DNA of 64,000 nucleotides from Candidatus Nanohalarchaeota archaeon (GTDB lineage: Archaea > Nanohalarchaeota > Nanosalinia > Nanosalinales > Nanosalinaceae). Of the stretch, positions 3,635-46,106 are shown one piece after another. Both the position numbers and the translations under genes were made by a program. Each line of letters opens with the position of its first letter. The stretch's first letter is position 1. Below the pieces are notes generated by a model, which did no database searches, had not been told where the DNA came from, and was given only the letters and a program-made list of their open reading frames with translations. The stretch lies in the NCBI GenBank assembly GCA_022729235.1, contig JALDAJ010000001.1:256001-320000 (forward strand), in the 5' to 3' direction.

Positions 3635-3654
3635 TGGACCCTCAGGGATTCGAA
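3635..3654 (-). repeat. Duplicated 3' end of tRNA-Ala (att-like)
   Basis: TGGACCCTCAGGGATTCGAA vs TGGACCCTCAGGGATTTGAA at 3730-3749 (19/20 identical). Confidence 0.9.
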
Positions 3655-3729: not shown

Positions 3730-3878
3730 TGGACCCTCAGGGATTTGAACCCTGGGCCTTCCGCTGTTTTGGCCTAATTCCGCCGTAGGCGGCGACCACC
3801 GAAGTGTGGTCCTTGCGTGCCGCACGAGCGTAACCAGGCGTGCAAAGCGGACGTTCTGCCAGGCTGAACTAAGGGCCC
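3730..3878 (-). tRNA. tRNA-Ala(UGC) with 75-nt intron at 37/38 (3766-3840)
   Basis: Acceptor GGGCCCT/AGGGTCC, anticodon stem TCCGC/GCGGA, T-loop TTCAAAT; positions 32-35 TTTG pair with intron CAAA (BHB-type splice geometry). Confidence 0.93.
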
Positions 3879-4291
3879 GAACGTATACTGTTGTAGTTGG
3901 TTGGTAGTTTTTTAAAGTGAAAAGTTATCCTGGAATGACATCTGGTTACCTTATTTAAAGGTTAAGTCTGATTCTTTGGATGCGGGACAATGAAATGAGA
4001 AGGATTATCTCGGATTCGTCTTTTTGCCTATAGAGTCCCGCTCTTGTCTTCCTTGCTTGATAGGCGGGGAGGATTATCTACCTATAAGGGGCGTCCCGTT
4101 GCGGATGTCCTTAGCACGAAAATGTCGCCTGACGCGAGGAGGATGGTGACAAGTAGTGCCACGCACGAGCAGATTTTTTGCGTGAAGCAGGTCCGGCCGC
4201 AATTTTACAAGTGATCCACCGGGCGTCTGTTTCTCGGCTCTGCCGAGAGATGGAGCATATCAAGTTGGTGCCTGACGTTGGATTGCTGGTA

Positions 4292-7203
4292 CACAGCCGG
4301 TTAGCGAATGGCTCGGTTCGAGAAGCCGATGAAGGACGTGGCAAGCTGCGATAAGCTTGGGTAAGGCGCATGCAGCCCTAGAGCCCAAGATTTCCTAATG
4401 CGACCTCGTAGGTCGCTTCGGCGACCTAGCCCGCAAGGGCAGGGAACGCGGTGAACTGAAACATCTTAGTAGCCGCAGGAAGAAAAATCAACTGAGATCT
4501 CCTTAGTAGTGGCGAACGAAGGGGAGATAGCGCAAACTGAATCCGCATCTGTGAAGATGCTGGACATGTGGTTCGGCCGTCCGTAGGGACCGCGTCGTGT
4601 AGTCGAAGTCCTCTGGAAAGAGGCGCCGTAGAGAGTGATAGCCTCGTAGACGATCGCGACAACGTTCTGGGACGTGCCAAGAGTAGCATGGGTTGGAAAT
4701 CCTGTGTGAACTGGGAGGCACTACCTTCCAACGCTAAATACTTCTCGAATCCGATAGCGCACTAAGTAGTGTGAACGAAAGCTGAAAAGTACCCTTTACA
4801 GGGGGTTCAAAGACCCTGAAACTAACCGGTGATAGGCTAGGCAGGGCGTGGAAGCTTCGAAACCTTTCAACGAGCCAGTCGAGAGACTGTAGTAGGACAA
4901 GGTGGAGCAGCGTCCTGTCATCCGTTTTGAAAAACGGGGCAGGGAGTGTACTGCCGTGGCGAGACTAAGTCGTTTACGCGATGGAGTCGTAGCGAAAGCA
5001 AGAAGCCCGCAGTTTACGAGGGGTCACGTGTTAACTCGCGTGAAGTCACCGCAGTACGATCCGAAACCGGTCGATCCTGGCCTGGGCAGGTTGAAGCGCA
5101 GCGAAAGCTGCGTGGAGGACCGCAAGCGGTGCTGTGATACAAGCGCTCGCGTGACCTGGGTCAAGGGGTGAAATGTCAATCGAGATCGGTGATGGCTGGT
5201 TCCTCTCAAAATGGGCCGAAGTCCAGCCTTGGACGAGCCGGCTAACGAGGTAAAGCGACTGATTCCGACTCCCTAGGGTTTCCCTAGGGCCGGAGTCAAA
5301 CTCTGAACTCGTTAGCGGTGTAGACTCCAGGAGTCAGGGACGGTGCGTAAGGTACCGTTCCGAGAGGGAAACAACCCAGAGCAAGGTTAAGGCCCCCAAT
5401 TCCTGACTAAGTGCCCATGAAGGGCGTCTCAGTTCTCAGACAGCGGGAAGGTTAGCTTAGAAGCAGCTACCCTTTAAAGAAAGCGTAACAGCTCACCCGT
5501 TGAGGACCGAGGCACCTAAAATGGACGGGGCTCAAGTCAGGAGCCGATACCTTGCCATTGTTTCTACAATGGATAGAGAGGCGATCCGTTCGGACGGAAG
5601 CATGGACGTGAGTTCGTGTGGACCGTGCGGATACGAAGATCCTGCCGGTAGTACCAGCGTCAACAAGAGTGAGAATCTCTTGCGCCGCAAGAGGAAGGGT
5701 TCCTCGGCAATGATTATCAGCTGAGGGTTAGCCGGTCCTAATCCCGCTCCTAACTGGACGCGGGAGAATTGGGAAGCAGGTTAATATTCCTGCGCCTACC
5801 CACGATAACCGACGTTTCGGGATAGCGGAAACTGCGCCTTCGCGCAGTCTAAACTGTTAATGCGGGCGAGCGTAATGCTTCGACCCCGTGAAACAGTGAA
5901 TGGCCTGGGAATTATCCCGGGTTTCCGTGAGTCCTGGAACCTTTGAAAAGGTGTGGGAGTCCGTACCCAGAACTAGCACAAGTCCTCTGGCTGATTAGGC
6001 TAAGGCGTTTCGGGCACAACTCGGCTCAGGGAATTCGGCAAGTTAGCTCCGTACCTTCGGAAGATGGAGTGCCTATCCTCTCGATAGGATAGGTCTCAGT
6101 GACCAGGGGGGCTCGACTGTTTACTAAAAACACATCCGACTGCCAGTCCGAAAGGATTTGTATAGTCGGAGACCCTTGCCCAGTGCCAGCACCTGAACAC
6201 CCCGTACATGGGGACGAAGGGCTGGTAAACGGCGGCGGTAACTATGACCGTCTTAAGGTAGCGTAGTCCCTTGCCAGTTAATTACTGGCCCGCATCAATA
6301 GGGCAACGAGGTCCCCACTGTCCCGAGCCGTGGCCCGGTGAACCCGCCGTACCGGCGCACAGGCCGGTGACTCCCGGTGGGAAGCGAAGACCCTGTGAAC
6401 CTTTACTGCAGTCTGTCGTTGCTGCGGGGGTCCAGGTGTGAAGTGTAGGTAGGAGACGTTACAGAGACGCAGGCGCTAGCCTGTCGCCCAGTCGACCATG
6501 GGACACTACCCTCTTGGAACCCTGCGGCTTACGTCTACGGACGGACAGCGGCAGCTGGGCAGTTTAACTGGGGCGGTATCCCTCTGATAACGAATCAGAG
6601 GGGTCCAAAGGTAGGCTCAGCCCGGTCAGAAATCGGGCGTAGAGTACAAGGATAAAAGCCTGCCTGACTGGAATCTTACCAATACGGATTCCAGGCGCGA
6701 AAGCGTGGCCTAGCGAACCTCTGTGTGCCAATTAGTGAGGCCCAGGTATGACAGAAAAGGTACTCCAGGGATAACTGGATTGTCTCGGGCGCGAGCTCAC
6801 ATCGACCCCGAGGCTTGTTACTTCGATGTCGGCTCTCCGTATCCTGGCTGTGCAACAGCAGCCAAGGGTGGGGGTGTTCACCCATTAAAACGGATCGTGA
6901 GCTGGGTTTAGATCGGCGTGAGCCAGATCGGTTGCTATCTGCCGGGAGTGTTTATGCGGTTTGAGAGGAAAGTCCGGACAGTACGAAAGGAACCCTGGAC
7001 TGAGGCCTCTGGTGTACCTGTCATCCGAGAGGGTGTTGCAGGGTAGCTACGCCTCACAGGCCTAAAAGCTGAAAGCATCTAAGCTTGAAGGTCTCCTCAA
7101 ACAAGAAACCGCATCCGCTCTCGTACAAGACGAGTTGATAGAGTGGCGGTGTAAGCACCAAGGCAACGAGGTGTTCAGCCGACCACTACTAATCGCGGGT
7201 TTC
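4292..7203 (+). rRNA. rrl: 23S rRNA (archaeal); ends approximate
   Basis: GAACTGAAACATCTTAGTA, GTAACTATGACCGTCTTAAGGTAGC, TTCGATGTCGGCTC, GTGAGCTGGGTTTAGA, sarcin-ricin-like AGTACGAAAGGAAC; about 2.9 kb, no intron. Confidence 0.99.
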
Positions 7204-7247
7204 ACAGCAATTCCACACGGACGGCACCAACTTGAGCTCTAACAACT

Positions 7248-7302
7248 ACGACTTACTCCCGTCAGGGAGTTGGTCGTCTGAGAAGACCTCTTTGGTCTTC
7301 GA
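7248..7302 (+). repeat. Two-hairpin module in the 23S trailer, homologous to 12028-12079 in RNase P RNA
   Basis: ACGACTTACTCC..GGAGTTGGTCGT-YTGAGAAGA..TCTTCGA is shared by both sites. Confidence 0.9.
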
Positions 7303-7425
7303 AACAGGTGCCTGGTGGATCACTTACCCAACGGCCGGACCTGCTAAGGTATACTTTTTCTGTATTTCTATCTCTATTTACCAGATAGAGAAAGATTTTT
7401 CTGCTACAATAGGACTAAACATACT

Positions 7426-8523
7426 ATGGAAGATGTTCTGAAGGATTATCCTCATCTCTATCAATTTCTACCCGACAACTTTGTGAAAAAGGCTAAACAG
7501 AAAGAAAGAGACGTGGAACACTCCATTATAGTATCTATAAAAAATAATTCCAACTATTTAGAGGTTTTGAATGACAGAATTGAAAGCTTGAAAGGGACTC
7601 CTGGTGAGAATATACTTGACAGATATTCCTCACAAGTAGATTCAAACAAAAAGTTTCATAGCTTTCTAGCAGAAATGAATTGCTATCTTCTGCTAAATGA
7701 GATTTTTGAGGACTTAGAACCCGTTAACGAAGATAGCTTCGATGAAGGTAAAAAACCTACCGATTTCTACTCAGAGAAACACGAAATTGACATCGAAGCT
7801 ACCTCTATTAACAAACACGAACCAGAGAGCAAACTATTCAGTTTAATTAGAGACTGGATAGAAGGTTTTGAGGAAAGCTATGAAGTGAGATTAATTAAGA
7901 AAGATAACTACAACAAATTCCCTTCCAACTATAAGGAAATAGAGGAAAATAGCAAGGAAGTAGAAGAAGTAAAACGTCTCATTGAGAACACGCCTCAACC
8001 TGAGACAATTGAAACAGATGCCTTCAAGATAACAGTAGAAAAATCTGATTTTGAAGAATCTATCTTCAAAGGTTCTGGTTGGGAATCTGCTGAATTTATT
8101 CCTGAAGATCCATCAAATTCTATTCGGAATCAGATAGATTCCAAAACAGACAAAGACCCTATATCAGACCACATGCTAATCTATCTAGATATAGATGGGT
8201 TTTTCCAGATGGATCATTCTTTGACAAAAATACTTCAGGGAGGAATTACTCATTTCGAACCGCCTATAGAACCAGAAGTGTCAAAGAAACTCAACACACA
8301 ACCAGAAGCGCTGAGAAAATATATGGAGGAGAATGGATTAATTCCCTCAGAAAATCAGCCTAGTGCTATACCTCCTGACGAAGAAGGTCTGTTTAAAGAA
8401 ATCGATGACTCGATAATTGGAGTAATCGCTTATCTACCCAATAGAAAACTAGTATTTCTACCAAATGTGTATAGTCAGAACCAGAAAGTTACTGAGATAC
8501 TAAATACCTTAGAACCAGAATAA
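7426..8523 (+). CDS. Hypothetical protein, possible PD-(D/E)xK nuclease-like fold
   Basis: 365 aa AT-rich ORF; LAE...KPTDF...IDIEAT pattern resembles restriction-endonuclease-like motifs. Confidence 0.5.
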   Translation: MEDVLKDYPHLYQFLPDNFVKKAKQKERDVEHSIIVSIKNNSNYLEVLNDRIESLKGTPGENILDRYSSQVDSNKKFHSFLAEMNCYLLLNEIFEDLEPVNEDSFDEGKKPTDFYSEKHEIDIEATSINKHEPESKLFSLIRDWIEGFEESYEVRLIKKDNYNKFPSNYKEIEENSKEVEEVKRLIENTPQPETIETDAFKITVEKSDFEESIFKGSGWESAEFIPEDPSNSIRNQIDSKTDKDPISDHMLIYLDIDGFFQMDHSLTKILQGGITHFEPPIEPEVSKKLNTQPEALRKYMEENGLIPSENQPSAIPPDEEGLFKEIDDSIIGVIAYLPNRKLVFLPNVYSQNQKVTEILNTLEPE

Positions 8524-8609
8524 GAGTCTAATATGTAGGCTAGGGGTATCTGAAAATTTCTTACAGAGATTCAGCTAGTTTTTTAGATTTTTCTGCACTA
8601 TATAGCAGT

Positions 8610-8762
8610 ATGAGCGATTCTGACGACTTTTGGAAAGTAGTGGCAGGAGCAGCAGGATTAGGAGGTCTTGCCTATCTGCTTTCTACGAAAAAGTGTCGTC
8701 AATGTGGTAAAAGAAATCCTAATGAAAACCAAAGATGCTCTAACTGCGGAGCATACCTATGA
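8610..8762 (+). CDS. Small membrane-anchored zinc-ribbon protein (50 aa, not in ORF track)
   Basis: MSDSDDFWKVVAGAAGLGGLAYLLSTKKCRQCGKRNPNENQRCSNCGAYL*; two CxxC motifs; ATGA overlap with the next ORF. Confidence 0.8.
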   Translation: MSDSDDFWKVVAGAAGLGGLAYLLSTKKCRQCGKRNPNENQRCSNCGAYL

Positions 8763-9094
8763 CCTCTCTAAAAGAGCTTCTTAGGATATCCGATATAGAA
8801 TTCTGGAAGGAATTGAGACATAACTGGAACCACGGAAGTGTCAAAGACCAGATGCTTTTCTGTCTTCTTATTACTCCAATGCTAACCTTCCTAGTATTCT
8901 ATAACAATGGAATGCCAAAAATACAGCAGTATTTTGTAGGCGGAATGCTCCTAGTACTATTTGTTTCAATTTTCAATACTTGGGCGTTTGCCAAAGGCGA
9001 ATATGAAGAAAGAAATTATAAGTGCAACAACTGTGGAAACCCTATGGAACACAAGTTAATAGAAGACCATACTTGCCCTGAAGATACAGAATAG
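8759..9094 (+). CDS. Membrane protein with C-terminal zinc ribbon
   Basis: Two hydrophobic helices followed by CNNC...HTC. Confidence 0.75.
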   Translation: MTSLKELLRISDIEFWKELRHNWNHGSVKDQMLFCLLITPMLTFLVFYNNGMPKIQQYFVGGMLLVLFVSIFNTWAFAKGEYEERNYKCNNCGNPMEHKLIEDHTCPEDTE

Positions 9095-9143
9095 AATGAT
9101 CGCTCTGCAAAAGATTTTATATCCTTAAGAGAAACTTGAACGC

Positions 9144-9365
9144 GTGGAAGTTGCAGAAAAAGCCAGTATAGATGCTACTTTGGGCACAGGACTTATTATT
9201 TCAGCACTGTCTTTATGGCTAATAGTTTTTCAGCTAGAGGAGACATTGTATCTCATTCATAGATCAGCTCAAGCCCTCTGGATACTAGGCATTTTCTTTA
9301 TTAGCCATAGTGTGATTGCCAGATTTACGGGCAAAGGAATAAGGGATCTCCTCAAGAGAGACTAA
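9144..9365 (+). CDS. Small two-helix membrane protein
   Basis: 73 aa, two hydrophobic segments. Confidence 0.6.
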   Translation: MEVAEKASIDATLGTGLIISALSLWLIVFQLEETLYLIHRSAQALWILGIFFISHSVIARFTGKGIRDLLKRD

Positions 9366-9492
9366 ACAAAACTAAACACCTCCTACCTCTAGTTAAACGC
9401 TCTCCTCTGTTTTTTGAACAGAATTAAACGGTCGTTCACGGATATGGCATTTAAGCACCGCCACCCACAGTTTTGGTCGAGGTGAAACACGA

Positions 9493-24934: not shown

Positions 24935-24964
24935 ACACGAAGTGTAGCCGAGCCCGGATTTGAA
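24935..24964 (-). repeat. Duplicated 3' end plus trailer of tRNA-Phe
   Basis: ACACGAAGTGTAGCCGAGCCCGGATTTGAA vs 25005-25034 (28/30 identical). Confidence 0.9.
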
Positions 24965-25014: not shown

Positions 25015-25132
25015 TGGCCGAGCCCGGATTTGAACCGGGGACAACTGCATAGCTGAACTACGTTCACCGAAACACCGACTGGATGTCGGCGTGTCTTCAG
25101 TGCAGCGCTCTCCCAGGCTGAGCTACTCGGCC
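25015..25132 (-). tRNA. tRNA-Phe(GAA) with 44-nt intron at 37/38 (25051-25094)
   Basis: Acceptor GGCCGAG/CTCGGCC, stem CTGCA/TGCAG; CTGA pairs with intron TCAG. Confidence 0.93.
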
Positions 25133-29340: not shown

Positions 29341-29525
29341 CGCCCAGGCCAGGGCTCGAACCTGGGACCACGACGTTGCTGTACCGAAGACCAGTGATCA
29401 CACCGTTTCCTAGAAACGGTGTTCGAGCATCGCTCTTGAAGAACGATGCGATCTTCTTGAACACCATTCTCGGCGAGAATGGCGTGTTTAACAGCGTCGC
29501 GCTCTACCTGCTGAGCTACCTGGGC
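29341..29525 (-). tRNA. tRNA-Asn(GUU) with 112-nt intron at 37/38 (29377-29488)
   Basis: Acceptor GCCCAGG/CCTGGGC, stem CGACG/CGTCG; CTGT pairs with intron ACAG. Confidence 0.93.
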
Positions 29526-39724: not shown

Positions 39725-39995
39725 ACATACCTCTTAACAAACCCCGAACTTAAATTTACACCTCCCCGGAGAAGAGACAAGAGAATCCAAAGACTATAGA
39801 AAGACTCCTACGCCCCCTCAGAACACATAACCAACCATTCAGTGCCCCGATAAGAAACAGGGTATCTCGAAAGGGCTAGCAACCTAGACGTACTTATATC
39901 CCATCGGAAACACGGTTGAGGGCTCTGAACCAATGGTTCAAAGTCCCAGTTGAGCACTGAACCCCGCCAAACTATCGTATCCTGAGCACACCTGG

Positions 39996-40982
39996 TTAGA
40001 GAACTTGCTTGTTATCTTCAGCAGATCGGTAGAGGCTCCGGATGTAGTGCATAGCTGCTAGAGCGTATTCGACTGCGACTTCCGGCTGAACATCCCACCT
40101 TTCCAGTGTCTTTGGGTTATAACCGTGACCGCCGCTCGGATTTCGCATTCCCCCGAGATAGTTGCCACCGTGAAGATGTCTCTTCATCGTCCAATTTTCT
40201 TTGTGTAGTTCTGTCGCGAGTTGACCTATACCTGAGGCGCTGCTATAGTTTCCGCTTGTACCATAGTCGTTTCCTATATCTCTTTGAAAATCTTCTACAG
40301 CTCTACCCGCTGCGGAAATAGAATTTCTTGGTGAGCTGTTGTGTTCAACTAAAGCAGTTGCTAGTTCATCTACATACTTGTCGTTCATATAAGCTACAAC
40401 ATCTTCACCAATCTGGTCTTCGATGAAAATACGAGCAGTAGCTTCGGATTTAAGAGCATCTTCCAACTCCTGGATGTACTCTTCGGATATTGGGCTATCC
40501 TTGGCAGAAACGGCGATGGTCCCGTTATCATTCTCAAGGAGATTCGAATAGGTTCCAAGCTTAATGAACTGCTTCTTTATCTTCTCTTCACTGATTCCTA
40601 AATCATACAGGACATCAACTTGTACCGCAGCACGATCTGGTTCATATCCCTTGGAAAGAAATGAGAGGAAGGCGATGAATGGTTTGTACCTTTGAAGATA
40701 CTTGTTTAGAATTACAAACCGCTGATCCGGAGACAGTTTCCTGACTTCCTCGGCTATATCAGAGTTTACTTCGAACCCGCTATCAACTTCTTGCATAAGG
40801 TTTAGTTCTTCCCCTAAGTGTATGACTGCCTTAGTATAGCGAGTTCCACAGTCGATGAACCGAGAAATTTCATCTCTTTCGAGTGGTCTTGGAGTCTGCG
40901 ATAGTCCAAATACAGCTTCCATCAATACCTCAGGGTTCACTACATTGGCCCGCAGAGATTGATGTACCTCCGACATGTTCAC
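39996..40982 (-). CDS. Winged-helix-like N-terminus plus C-terminal HEPN-like domain
   Basis: AGRAVED ... MRNPSGGH (Rx5H). Confidence 0.65.
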   Translation of the reverse strand: MNMSEVHQSLRANVVNPEVLMEAVFGLSQTPRPLERDEISRFIDCGTRYTKAVIHLGEELNLMQEVDSGFEVNSDIAEEVRKLSPDQRFVILNKYLQRYKPFIAFLSFLSKGYEPDRAAVQVDVLYDLGISEEKIKKQFIKLGTYSNLLENDNGTIAVSAKDSPISEEYIQELEDALKSEATARIFIEDQIGEDVVAYMNDKYVDELATALVEHNSSPRNSISAAGRAVEDFQRDIGNDYGTSGNYSSASGIGQLATELHKENWTMKRHLHGGNYLGGMRNPSGGHGYNPKTLERWDVQPEVAVEYALAAMHYIRSLYRSAEDNKQVL

Positions 40983-41695
40983 TCAGGCAGATGTTCTTCC
41001 AGTATCTCTAGCTTCTCCTTGAGCTCGGTTTTGTCTATGTCAGCGAGATCAACTTTAACGTTGATTTCGACATTTTCTCTCGTTTCGGACGAGGTTCTGC
41101 TAGGAACGTCAGGCGTTTTATCTCCCTCAGAACCTGTCGTCGGCTGTCCTTGTTGATCCAAGCTGTCGTTCTCTTCCTCTTCCGTCTCGTCTAGGGATAG
41201 ACTTAGTTCCAGTTTTCCGCCCTCACCGGCCTCAATCACACCAAGTTCCTCGAATATCCCGACAAAACGCTCGACCTTCTCAATATCCTCTTCGAAGTAT
41301 TCTTGCTTGCCAGCGACCTTTTTGGCTATCTCTGATCGAGTGTAATCCGAGTTCTTGTTAAGTAGATATACCACTTCGTTAAACAAGTCGTTCTCTTCCT
41401 GAAGCTGTTTGACTAGTTTTTTCTTTGCACGCCTCTCCATTTCCTCATTTGATGCGTTTTCGAGCGAAACTAGGAATTTCGGAGGAGAGTAGTACCCTGC
41501 TTTCTCTCTATGGATCAGTCCGATTTTCCAGAGCGCCTTGTAACAGGTGGATGCGTTCTGGGTGTTAATATCGTCGGCCGCGTCTTTGTAGTATACGGCT
41601 TCCTCACCCTCATAGGTAAAGCGCTCAATGAGATTTTCAAGTGCTTTCTTATGGAGTTCTGGAGAGAATCTCCCCGGCAAATCATCTCGTTCCAT
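40979..41695 (-). CDS. Tandem winged-helix-like hypothetical protein
   Basis: ALWKIGLI and FEELGVIE wHTH-like segments, acidic linker, VEINVKVDL strand; overlaps the downstream gene (GTGA). Confidence 0.6.
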   Translation of the reverse strand: MERDDLPGRFSPELHKKALENLIERFTYEGEEAVYYKDAADDINTQNASTCYKALWKIGLIHREKAGYYSPPKFLVSLENASNEEMERRAKKKLVKQLQEENDLFNEVVYLLNKNSDYTRSEIAKKVAGKQEYFEEDIEKVERFVGIFEELGVIEAGEGGKLELSLSLDETEEEENDSLDQQGQPTTGSEGDKTPDVPSRTSSETRENVEINVKVDLADIDKTELKEKLEILEEHLPE

Positions 41696-42037
41696 AAGTC
41701 ACATATTTAATAAAAAACTTTTTAAACTATTCTGTTATTCGCCGATTTTTAGTCAAATTGCAGAGATATTTTGTCACGAGGAGAAAATCCGGCAGGAGTT
41801 TCCGAGGGTATTACACCATAATACACAGCAAGCTTTAGATGAAGGAAATGATGACTAATAACTAACCAATATAAGCACAGTGTTCGCCTATCAAATACGA
41901 ATCAGCAGGCTGAGAAAGATATGATGTTGTATAATAGTACTATTTAAATGCTGAACACTAGATTTCTCTTGAAAATTCAAACGAAGCGAGGAGAACCGAG
42001 AAGAGCTTGAAAGAAAGGCTCTGAATGGACGAGAAGG

Positions 42038-42171
42038 CGCCCCCTCAGGGATTTGAACCCTGGATCTGCACCTATTTGCTTCGAAGATCAGAGATCTTCT
42101 CGGTCCCCGTTCTCCCGTTGGGAGAACTTGAGGCTCCGCAAGGTGCCGTCTTTCCACTAGACCAAGGGGGC
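42038..42171 (-). tRNA. tRNA-Arg(GCG) with 62-nt intron at 37/38 (42074-42135)
   Basis: Acceptor GCCCCCT/AGGGGGC, stem GCACC/GGTGC, A20; TTGC pairs with intron GCAA. Confidence 0.9.
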
Positions 42172-44573: not shown

Positions 44574-46106
44574 CTACCGCTGCTCCCGTAGTTCCTTAAG
44601 CACTAACTTGGTGATTTCTCCTATCTCCTGGTACCCTTTACGCAGCTCCTCTATCTCTTCCTGCTGTCTCTCAATCTCCTCTATAAGAGGTTCTATATCT
44701 CTCCCATCACCTGATTCCTCTCTCTGTTCGAGCTGGTCGACCCGGCGCTCAACCCTTTCCAGCCCGGAGTCATTGCCCCCGACCTGTTGCTGGACGAGTT
44801 CGGACAGGTTCCTGTTGATCTCTTCTAGGACTTTTTCAGTATCGTTTTCCTCCTGCGCCAGTTCTTCGTATTCGTCGTGGGAAAGCAGTTTGAGGTGTGC
44901 CAGGTCTTCAAAGTCGTTGAAAATCCATTTGAAATCCGAAACAACTGCTTTCAGGTCATTCATTTCCTTCCTCAAGTCCGAGACCTCGGTTTCATCAAAT
45001 TCCTGCCGTAGTGACTCCAGTCTCTGGTTGAGATTCCTTATATCCGAGCGGAGTTCCTTCAAGTCGTCTTCTACCGATGTATCCGCCACTTCTTCCTCTA
45101 AATCCACCAGTTTCTCATCTGCCTCATCCTGTCTCTGAGAAAGATTGGCTCGGACTTCCCTGATTAAATCAGACTTCTCAGCGAGCGTGTCCTTGACCTT
45201 TTCCAGTTCTTTCTCCAGGCTATCAACTGCTTCTTCACTATCCAGGTCTTCTATCTGGGAATGTACCTGTTCAAATCTTTCTTCATATTCTTCCTCTACC
45301 TGTTCGATTCTTTCCTCTATATCAGATGCAGGGTCTTCAGGCATGGACTCCTGCAGTTCTTCCAGGTCCTGTCGGAGTTCGTCGAGTTCCCCGTCGTCAC
45401 CGTCATCATCTATGCGGTCTCGTAGCTGGTCGAGTTCTTCCCTGATTTCTTCCTCTACTTCGTCAACTCTTCCCTGGAGGTCAGAGCCTGATTCTTCGGG
45501 TATAGATTCTTCGAGACCCTCAAGTTCATCCAGTTTTTCCGAAACATCTTCTACCTGGCCCTGCAGAGACTCTACGGCATCATTATTTTCCAGTTCCTCG
45601 ATTCTGTCCTCGATTTCCTGGGACTCAGTATCTTCAAGCCGGGACTCAAGTTCCTCAATCCTTTCTCTGAGTTCGTCAACTTCTTCAGGAGCTTTCCGGG
45701 ACGTGTCTTCCCCCGAAGACTCTTCTTCCAGGGTTTCATCCCCGTCTCCTTGATCCTCTTCGCTCTCTTGATCTCCGAATATAGCGTCATCGCCATCGTC
45801 TTCATCGTCCAGTAGGACTTGTTCGTCGGAGCCATCCTCAGTTTCATCTTCTTCCGTGAACACTGTTCCGCCGTCTTCAGCCTCGTCATCGCCGAAGAGT
45901 GTGTCGCCTTCACTTTCATCCTCTACCTCTTCCTGTTCTTCATCATCTCCGAACAGTGTTTCATTCTCTTTATCATCCTCCGTAGAACCTGAGTCGTCTT
46001 CAAATATCTCTTCTTCCGCTTCTTCGTCATCTCCAAAGAGTACTTCCTGTTTGGAATCTTCCTCGTCGTCTTCTCCGAATATAACGTCGTCCGTCATCGA
46101 GTTCAC
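44574..46106 (-). CDS. Acidic coiled-coil protein with N-terminal (L/I)FGDDE repeats
   Basis: About 8 Phe/Leu-acidic repeats in the first 120 aa, then long heptads. Confidence 0.8.
   Translation of the reverse strand: MNSMTDDVIFGEDDEEDSKQEVLFGDDEEAEEEIFEDDSGSTEDDKENETLFGDDEEQEEVEDESEGDTLFGDDEAEDGGTVFTEEDETEDGSDEQVLLDDEDDGDDAIFGDQESEEDQGDGDETLEEESSGEDTSRKAPEEVDELRERIEELESRLEDTESQEIEDRIEELENNDAVESLQGQVEDVSEKLDELEGLEESIPEESGSDLQGRVDEVEEEIREELDQLRDRIDDDGDDGELDELRQDLEELQESMPEDPASDIEERIEQVEEEYEERFEQVHSQIEDLDSEEAVDSLEKELEKVKDTLAEKSDLIREVRANLSQRQDEADEKLVDLEEEVADTSVEDDLKELRSDIRNLNQRLESLRQEFDETEVSDLRKEMNDLKAVVSDFKWIFNDFEDLAHLKLLSHDEYEELAQEENDTEKVLEEINRNLSELVQQQVGGNDSGLERVERRVDQLEQREESGDGRDIEPLIEEIERQQEEIEELRKGYQEIGEITKLVLKELREQR

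Follow-up and report, generated by a model that had tools for sequence, protein, structure and literature searches.

Introduction

HEPN RNases recur as effectors in prokaryotic immunity and in toxin-antitoxin systems. Proteins with a winged helix-turn-helix (wHTH) domain act as regulators in other modules such as AbiE, which combines the wHTH antitoxin AbiEi with the nucleotidyltransferase effector AbiEii. To our knowledge, studies of archaeal HEPN RNases are very few, and there is none for the Nanohaloarchaea, which live on Halobacteria as episymbionts. Here, we analysed a stretch of 64 kb from Candidatus Nanohalarchaeota archaeon (contig JALDAJ010000001.1, positions 256,001 to 320,000; hereafter the window), with a focus on two tightly coupled genes, A and B. 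They lie in an ‘islet’ of ~2.2 kb between two copies of an 11-nucleotide (nt) repeat, one of which is part of a tRNA-Arg gene. In our judgement, the chances are about even that A and B form an uncatalogued toxin-antitoxin or abortive-infection module, in which a HEPN effector (B) is combined with a paralogous regulator (A) on a decayed integrated islet.

The HEPN survey, in the part available to us (Anantharaman et al. 2013, PMC3710099), describes a catalytic Rx4-6H motif with the R where helix 3 ends and the H in a loop, a polar N, D or H directly after the motif R, a conserved acidic residue further upstream, typically in the form Ex3[KR], and a frequent insert between helices 2 and 3. The same part of the survey lists DUF4145 as a family of the HEPN clan. 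It gives fusions of wHTH and HEPN domains only for giant superfamily I (SF-I) helicase proteins and for restriction endonuclease (REase) proteins of the EC042_2821 type. Another system of relevance is PbeABCD. In the available parts of its descriptions (Xiong et al. 2019, PMC6459918; Nucleic Acids Res 2024, PMC10853773), PbeA consists of an HKD nuclease and a superfamily 2 (SF2) helicase. PbeB has 66 amino acids (aa), and the other two components are an ABC ATPase of the CxC type (PbeC) and a cognate of DndE (PbeD).

An earlier reading of the same DNA, made from the sequence alone (hereafter the original prediction), had proposed a coupled wHTH and wHTH-HEPN gene pair in a tRNA-anchored islet as a candidate DNA-sensing defence system. 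Our results partly support this interpretation. They add to it that A and B share an N-terminal module, that A belongs to a family of 916 clusters, and that the haloarchaeal relatives are accompanied by a helicase and a second A-type module.

Gene B and its predicted HEPN domain

Gene B (39996..40982, minus strand), the predicted RNase effector, was characterized from its open reading frame (ORF), an alignment of 30 sequences, AlphaFold2 models and Foldseek searches. Two start codons are available. The GTG at 40982 yields a protein of 328 aa and a 4-nt GTGA overlap with gene A, whereas the ATG at 40976 yields 326 aa, the length of the database copy, and leaves a 2-nt gap. The islet was originally described as holding only two overlapping genes. 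The two long ORFs are indeed there, but the overlap depends on the start of B and disappears if the ATG is used.

We found 29 relatives of B, with 33-68% identity over 94-99% of its length. Together with B itself, which is included in all conservation counts below, they make up a family of 30 clusters at 90% identity. The named relatives come from a metagenome-assembled genome of Nanohaloarchaea, Halobaculum gomorrense, Halorubrum sp. SD626R and Salarchaeum japonicum, and a further one is encoded on a Haladaptatus plasmid. For two different homologues (P0007 and P0020, with 53% and 45% identity to B), the longest contig listed has the same length, 7150 nt, and they may be two B paralogues on a single contig.

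The model of the whole protein, based on the alignment of relatives, had a predicted local distance difference test score (pLDDT) of 88.2. It consists of a double-wHTH module (residues 17-158) followed by a C-terminal HEPN-like domain (residues ~165-328), and the double module is built from two helix-helix-helix-strand-strand units at residues 17-72 and 89-158. With the whole model, Foldseek returned winged-helix regulators of the MarR, DtxR and MntR types and the wHTH parts of methyltransferases, all at E values of at least 0.015. Because these were winged-helix matches only, the C-terminal domain was modelled again on its own (pLDDT 92.2; predicted template modelling score, pTM, 0.88). Its helices span residues 201-212, 218-240, 251-260 (an inserted helix), 267-280 and 300-323. 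The 12 top-ranked PDB chains for this domain were HEPN proteins or HEPN toxin complexes throughout, including AF_0298 (2hsb), TM0613, Csm6, HepT-MntA, SO_3166/3165, RnlA and LsoA. The match to 2hsb had a probability of 0.98 and template modelling (TM) scores of 0.53/0.68. The highest TM scores overall were 0.57 when normalized to the query (LsoA) and 0.68 when normalized to the target. Searches aimed at viruses gave no counterpart of B: Foldseek of the C-terminal domain against viral models (BFVD) returned nothing meaningful (best E value 0.93), and tblastn of B against phage records returned no match.

The wHTH-like segments, the helical C-terminal domain and the RAVE...RNPSGGH residues that had been pointed out in B can all be located, the latter at residues 227-230 and 280-286. 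The codons of R280-N-P-S-G-G-H286 occupy 40125..40145 (minus strand) and encode an Rx5H motif with an N after the R, at the end of helix 267-280 and in the loop towards helix 300-323. R280, N281, P282, G284 and H286 are invariant in 30 of the 30 sequences; in three of these a one-residue deletion turns the motif into Rx4H. Upstream, the codons of E230-D-F-Q-R234 (40281..40295, minus strand) encode an Ex3R motif in the long helix 218-240, with R234 invariant across the 30 sequences and E230 conserved in ≥90% of them. The placement of the motif, the inserted helix and the polar residue after the R all agree with the account of HEPN domains in the available part of the survey (PMC3710099).

Hence, the HEPN fold, the Rx4-6H motif and the Ex3[KR] motif are all found in B, while a significant sequence-profile match is missing. 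The conservation of the motifs is a stronger argument for HEPN than the structural matches. Judged from sequence and model, B is very probably an active HEPN RNase, metal-independent by prediction, of a family not yet described, in line with the HEPN assignment of the original prediction. Since no profile of a described HEPN family matches B, it would constitute a new family within the superfamily, if it is a member.

Gene A and its large family

Gene A (40979..41695, minus strand) encodes a protein of 238 aa, the proposed regulator or neutralizer of B, and was analysed by its ORF, a family profile and hhalign. A TATA-like sequence, TTTAAAAA (41719..41726, minus strand), lies at -31 to -24 from the ATG of A, in an A+T-rich spacer of 342 nt with a GC content of ~0.40. 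TTTAAAAA may be the archaeal promoter of a leaderless or short-leader A-B transcript.

The protein has a double-wHTH module (residues ~1-166), a polar/acidic and probably disordered linker (~167-207) and a strand-plus-helix tail (~208-238), and it carries no catalytic motif. This layout agrees with what had been noticed originally, i.e., two wHTH-like segments, an acidic linker and a terminal strand and helix. The linker is directly visible in the sequence, while the profile alignment to the N-terminus of B points to the two wHTHs, and the pattern conserved in 34 relatives suggests the terminal strand and helix.

Homologues of A were not easily found. A word-indexed search returned A alone, and an alignment-based rerun returned four proteins, including A itself. 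The large family became visible only in an exhaustive search with a profile built from six A-type proteins found as neighbours of B. This search retrieved 916 clusters at E ≤ 0.001 and 283 clusters at E ≤ 1e-10, with clusters defined at 50% identity. In the alignment of 34 members, two winged helices with a helical bridge between them are followed by a polar/acidic linker of variable length and a conserved C-terminal strand-plus-helix. A B-like HEPN domain was present in none of the 150 A-family members listed.

In Pfam, the A family produced sub-threshold matches to HVO_A0261_N only. The A-type protein of Halobaculum is named ‘DUF5343 domain-containing’ in UniRef, and in the nearest Atlas cluster with a Pfam family (score 0.83) DUF5343 occurs in 42% of the members. 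DUF5343 was not reported by Pfam scans of six A-type proteins at E values up to 1. We treat the connection with DUF5343 (PF17278) as a lead only. Neither HVO_A0261 nor DUF5343 is mentioned in the literature library that we searched.

One member of the A family, P0104 (1024 aa), has a duplicated double-wHTH module (residues ~1-205 and 218-320) fused to an OLD/GajA-like AAA ATPase and TOPRIM nuclease, with PADLOC matches to Old (E = 3e-33) and GajA (E = 1.4e-20). Another protein with the module, of 814 aa, is encoded at positions 7001-9445 of locus L005, on the Halarchaeum plasmid NZ_CP054708.1. It combines an N-terminal A-family module with an A-type tail at its extreme C-terminus (domain E value 0.019). 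The ~500 residues in the middle have no PADLOC match, and the gene lies among metabolic genes without B as a neighbour.

Homology and pairing of A and B

Comparison of the B profile with the A family by hhalign gave a probability of 95.9% and an E value of 6.4e-9 over 153 columns, aligning residues ~1-156 of B with ~1-166 of A. Moreover, the hidden Markov model of B directly matches the double-wHTH module in several proteins of the A family. Because of this homology, A can be described as a paralogue of the N-terminal module of B, in which a linker and tail have taken the place of the HEPN domain. A structure prediction of the A-B complex gave no answer (score 0.00) and is counted neither for nor against an association.

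Five loci have readable context: the window, a second nanohaloarchaeal contig (L001) and three haloarchaeal loci, i.e., Halobaculum gomorrense (L002), L003 and a 331-kb Haladaptatus plasmid (L004). The locus of Halorubrum sp. SD626R is not among them. The original prediction had named the conserved pairing of homologues as a check, and by local hmmsearch a gene of the A family adjoins B in 5 of the 5 loci. The window and L001 each have one such gene near B, L002 and L003 each have two, and L004 has a single A-type gene with two modules, encoding a protein of 506 aa. The A-type neighbours, upstream of B in L001-L003 and convergent downstream of B in L002-L004, share the layout of A at 16-36% identity. 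Where A lies upstream, the junctions are a 4-nt gap in L001, an 11-nt overlap in L002 and a 10-nt gap in L003, compared to the GTGA overlap or 2-nt gap in the window. The genes are thus adjacent, co-oriented and tightly coupled, as in type II toxin-antitoxin pairs; the A-type gene of L004 is convergent instead.

L001 has the same A-B order as the window, with 68% identity for B and 36% for A. Its contig is 2.7 kb long, and the 879 nt upstream of the A gene hold no listed ORF of ≥60 aa, even if open-ended, so that no end of a helicase gene is present there.

The haloarchaeal loci are larger cassettes (L002, 7268-11802; L003, 7466-11905; L004, 8033-12474), in which a gene for a wHTH-SF2 helicase comes first in 3 of the 3 cases. 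The order in L002 and L003 is helicase, A-type gene, B, and a convergent A-type gene that abuts or overlaps the 3' end of B. The helicases that were scanned with Pfam (L002 and L003) contain ERCC3/XPB_C and ResIII domains, and the PADLOC model of PbeA matches the helicase in Halobaculum (E = 2.7e-34), Salarchaeum (E = 1e-21) and Haladaptatus (E = 8e-33), in each case with the SF2 core only. In the window, no such helicase was found.

The surroundings of these cassettes look mobile. In L002, a family-B DNA polymerase gene (4969-7176) lies directly upstream of the helicase cassette, and ~2 kb downstream (12933-15920) there are repeat-derived ORFs typical of a CRISPR array together with a Cas1-like gene. 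Integrases are found near the cassette in L003; these and the CRISPR-related ORFs were read from translations. The Haladaptatus plasmid of L004 carries ArdC, Orc1/Cdc6 and transposases.

The tRNA-Arg gene and the putative insert

The 11-nt sequence CGCCCCCTCAG occurs twice in the window, at 39811-39821 and 42038-42048, without a third copy. Shuffled sequences led to an expectation of ~0.01 matches, and two copies were reached in 0 of 100 shuffles. The identity between the two copies ends at 11 nt. Rfam places a tRNA gene at 42038..42171 on the minus strand (RF00005, 50.8 bits, full model 1-71), so that the right-hand copy (42038..42048) coincides exactly with the 3'-terminal 11 nt of the tRNA. 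The anticodon loop, as read from the DNA and the alignment made by cmscan, is U-U-G-C-G-G-A, which gives the anticodon GCG (Arg) and is followed by an insertion of ~62 nt (intron). The bracketing of 2.2 kb by a repeat of the tRNA-Arg(GCG) 3' end was therefore described correctly from the start. This intron-bearing tRNA gene is the putative integration target, its terminal 11 nt a putative attachment (att) core, and the left-hand copy (39811..39821), 175 nt past the stop codon of B, a putative distal att remnant.

A and B are the only long ORFs between the two copies; the other ORFs there are frames of 65-76 aa that overlap A or B. The GC content inside the islet is 0.40-0.47, compared to 0.48-0.55 outside. 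Since no integrase is encoded in the islet, the element would be a remnant or be mobilized in trans.

To see how often such a repeat arises by chance, we took 20,000 random segments of 134 nt from the window and searched for 11-mers repeated within 10 kb. Some repeated 11-mer was found in 70% of the segments, and in 3.1% the repeat was anchored exactly at either end, i.e., ~1.5% per end. Because of this chance level, the CGCCCCCTCAG repeat is suggestive of an insertion without being proof of it.

For two further tRNAs in the window, the 3' end is duplicated exactly, with the second copy 70-95 nt downstream. One pair is 18 nt long (24947-24964 and 25017-25034; ~25 nt with one mismatch), the other 16 nt (3635-3650 and 3730-3745). 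Including tRNA-Arg, a repeat of the 3' end is thus found for 3 of the 5 tRNAs. The 16- and 18-nt duplications may be scars of integration at tRNA genes, with hardly any cargo remaining, and in view of them tRNA ends seem to be recurrent targets in this genome.

The flanks of the islet contain housekeeping genes (Topo VI, RIO, NMD3, uridine kinase, aEF-1beta, NUDIX and FEN1). The view of this tRNA site as a defence hotspot, which formed part of the original argument, is therefore not borne out by its housekeeping flanks and an islet that lacks an integrase.

Other features of the window

The five tRNA genes detected with Rfam are 118-191 nt each (3730-3878, minus; 12379-12569, plus; 25015-25132, minus; 29341-29525, minus; 42038-42171, minus), a length which implies long insertions or introns in all five. 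ARAGORN, run in bacterial mode on the whole window, reported no tRNA; Rfam was needed because these insertions made ARAGORN miss them. The 16S (554-2027) and 23S (4280-7213) rRNA genes are 2.2 kb apart, with the opposite-strand tRNA at 3730-3878 in the spacer, an unusual arrangement for an archaeal rRNA operon. At 44574-46106 (minus strand), an extremely acidic, repetitive and coiled-coil-like protein of 510 aa with long D/E runs is encoded, for which Pfam gave a chance-level match only.

Discussion

If A and B act as an effector and its regulator, B would be the effector, with a nucleic-acid-binding double-wHTH module joined to a predicted metal-independent HEPN RNase. A would be a non-catalytic paralogue of that module, in which the flexible acidic linker and the strand-plus-helix tail replace the HEPN domain. 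The two proteins would be made from one tightly coupled transcript, with A produced in step with B. A could then associate with B, with either the shared module or the tail of A as the contact, and/or bind the same DNA, and thereby keep the RNase silent and regulate the operon. When A is lost, displaced or degraded, for instance upon virus infection or loss of the element, B would be freed, RNA would be cut and the cell would be arrested. Such a growth arrest might serve maintenance of the element or abortive infection. In this organism the pair would sit in a decayed insert without an integrase, next to the 3' end of tRNA-Arg. The cassettes of its relatives in Halobacteria contain a wHTH-SF2 helicase and a second A-type module as well.

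Besides the HEPN features of B and the pairing and paralogy of A and B, several observations favour a conflict module of this kind. The fusion of the A module to OLD/GajA-like domains in P0104, the plasmid, integrase and CRISPR surroundings of the relatives and the PbeA-like helicase have the flavour of conflict systems. Furthermore, the tRNA-end repeat and the lower GC content argue for a foreign origin of the islet.

Other results weigh against it. The best Foldseek E value of B to a HEPN structure is 0.5, and none of these matches reaches 0.001. No HEPN-clan Pfam model matches B significantly; DUF4145, in 1 of the 30 family members at E = 0.12, is a weak lead towards HEPN. Three chance-level matches and no HEPN entry came out of a search of PDB sequences with the B profile (E ≤ 10). 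The Atlas leans towards Hypoth_Ymh, DUF4145, RNase LS and Abi_C, which points weakly in the direction of HEPN, at scores of 0.77-0.80, below the threshold for a lead. No defence model of PADLOC matches A or B. The neighbours of the pair in the window are housekeeping genes with no defence genes among them, no integrase lies between the repeats, and the repeat itself has only 11 nt, with its ~1.5% chance per end. Gene context covers five loci only, and in the Haladaptatus locus no A-type gene stands before B, its A-type gene being convergent. Finally, the A family (916 clusters at 50% identity) greatly exceeds the B family (30 clusters at 90% identity) in size, and A therefore cannot be seen as a dedicated partner of B.

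A further question is whether there was an insertion at all. A chance match of the repeat, with A and B as ordinary lineage-specific genes, would be in line with a match of only 11 nt, with the 70% of random segments that repeat some 11-mer and the 3.1% that do so at an end, with the lack of an integrase and with the modest dip in GC content. Yet the copy is anchored exactly at the 3' terminus of the tRNA and the repeat encloses precisely the two-gene block, 3'-end duplications of 16 and 18 nt are present at two other tRNAs in the window, and homologues of B are scattered over distant halophilic archaea and a plasmid. We therefore regard a chance repeat as unlikely; it bears on the origin of A-B only, not on its function. 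We also hold it to be quite unlikely that A-B is a non-functional remnant of a larger, helicase-containing defence cassette such as those in Halobacteria. The wHTH-SF2 helicase upstream and the two A-type modules in 3 of the 3 haloarchaeal loci would fit a loss of parts in the window, where both helicase and integrase are lacking. Both ORFs are nevertheless intact and tightly coupled, and L001 has the same two-gene form, without the end of a helicase gene in the 879 nt upstream. The divergence of L001 from the window, to 68% (B) and 36% (A) identity, implies purifying selection on this two-gene form.

A role in the replication, maintenance or partition of a mobile element is in our view very unlikely. 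An origin or a centromere-like site would then be the target of the wHTHs, and the task of the HEPN-like domain would be dimerization or the processing of RNA primers, not killing. The wHTHs do show weak matches to the N-terminal domains of phage replication-organiser and Rep-O proteins (TIGR01714, E = 0.02; PF04492, E = 0.003; PF09681 in 1 of the 30 B members), but all of these are below the curated cut-offs and capture generic wHTH features only. The haloarchaeal cassettes lie beside the SF2 helicase, the family-B polymerase (L002), integrases (L003) and ArdC with Orc1/Cdc6 (L004), and the window copy is in a tRNA-flanked insert; still, the islet of the window contains no replication gene, yet the pair is intact. 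Moreover, the invariant R-N-x4-H together with Ex3R is, in the terms of the available survey text, the catalytic signature of HEPN RNases, which would have no reason to persist in a purely structural domain. The same residues bear on what we consider the least probable explanation, namely that B is a transcription regulator whose HEPN-like domain senses a ligand or RNA without nuclease action, comparable to MtlR, with A as co-regulator or anti-repressor. Winged helices dominate both proteins, the nearest structures of whole B are of the MarR, DtxR and MntR types, and non-catalytic HEPN families, MtlR among them, are described in the available part of the survey (PMC3710099). According to that text, however, such families have lost all or part of Rx4-6H, whereas the R, N and H of B are unchanged in all 30 sequences. 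A distribution over Nanohaloarchaea, several haloarchaeal genera and a plasmid is also more in keeping with a mobile accessory module than with a housekeeping regulator.

An effector-regulator module thus remains our preferred reading, and it can be extended to a wider idea that we put forward as possible but doubtful. The double-wHTH module of A and B would represent a large, unrecognized family of archaeal conflict sensors or adaptors with interchangeable outputs: HEPN in B, an OLD-type output in P0104, other C-terminal domains elsewhere and a docking tail in A. Paralogues that carry only the tail would act as decoy-like inhibitors by hetero-association with their effector paralogue, and A-B would move between Nanohaloarchaea and their haloarchaea, such that symbiont and host share a defence or addiction module.

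As an effector and regulator, A-B would bring in a new family of HEPN proteins and also a new logic of regulation, with a nucleic-acid-binding module common to both partners. The uncharacterized A family of 916 clusters may have a general role as sensor or adaptor in archaeal conflict systems. That B relatives occur in Nanohaloarchaea as well as in Halobacteria is of relevance to gene exchange between episymbiont and host. Because the haloarchaeal relatives are found in culturable genera related to genetically tractable models, toxicity, neutralization and virus resistance are directly testable.

Comparison with known systems

Scans of A and B against Pfam, NCBIfam, PHROGs and PADLOC returned nothing at or near the curated cut-offs, in agreement with the original remark that the pair is not a recognizable named system. 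No description of the pair was found in the literature library searched, the scope of which did not extend to supplements, and the available part of a preprint on haloarchaeal defence (10.1101/2025.11.08.687337) contains no mention of HEPN. Hence, A-B belongs to none of the named systems against which it was tested, i.e., HEPN-MNT, RnlAB, Pbe and any PADLOC model.

Like AbiE-type modules, A-B has a wHTH gene just upstream of, and coupled to, the gene for the effector. The effector B is HEPN-like and not a nucleotidyltransferase, however, and no Abi model of PADLOC matches. The PbeABCD system (CxC-ABC-ATPase-DndE) is similar insofar as the helicase of the haloarchaeal cassettes matches PbeA, although with its SF2 core only. 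A and B match no Pbe model, the window has no helicase, and the partners in the cassettes differ from PbeB, PbeC and PbeD as described in the available text. An identification of the cassette as PbeABCD was rejected on these grounds.

Compared with the HEPN RNases of conflict systems (DUF4145-like, Ymh, the RNase LS proteins RnlA/LsoA, and Csm6) in the available part of the survey (PMC3710099), B likewise has an all-alpha core of four helices, in which an insert separates helices 2 and 3, an Ex3[KR] motif upstream, and an Rx4-6H motif where helix 3 ends, its R being followed by a polar residue. It differs from the HEPN-clan families of Pfam in that it is not a member of any of them by sequence profile. 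It is also unlike the wHTH-HEPN fusions given in that text, in that its N-terminal double-wHTH module recurs in the partner gene.

The toxin-antitoxin pairs RnlA-RnlB, LsoA-LsoB/Dmd and HepT-MntA likewise consist of two coupled genes, one for a HEPN protein and one for a small non-catalytic partner, and the toxins RnlA, LsoA and HepT-MntA are among the best structural matches of B. A is distinct from the partners in HepT-MntA and RnlA-RnlB: it is not a nucleotidyltransferase (no Pfam or NCBIfam match) and not RnlB-like (no Pfam match). Membership in HEPN-MNT was rejected, as A is a double-wHTH protein without a nucleotidyltransferase match. Unlike the antitoxins of all these pairs, A is a paralogue of the N-terminal module of the predicted toxin itself.

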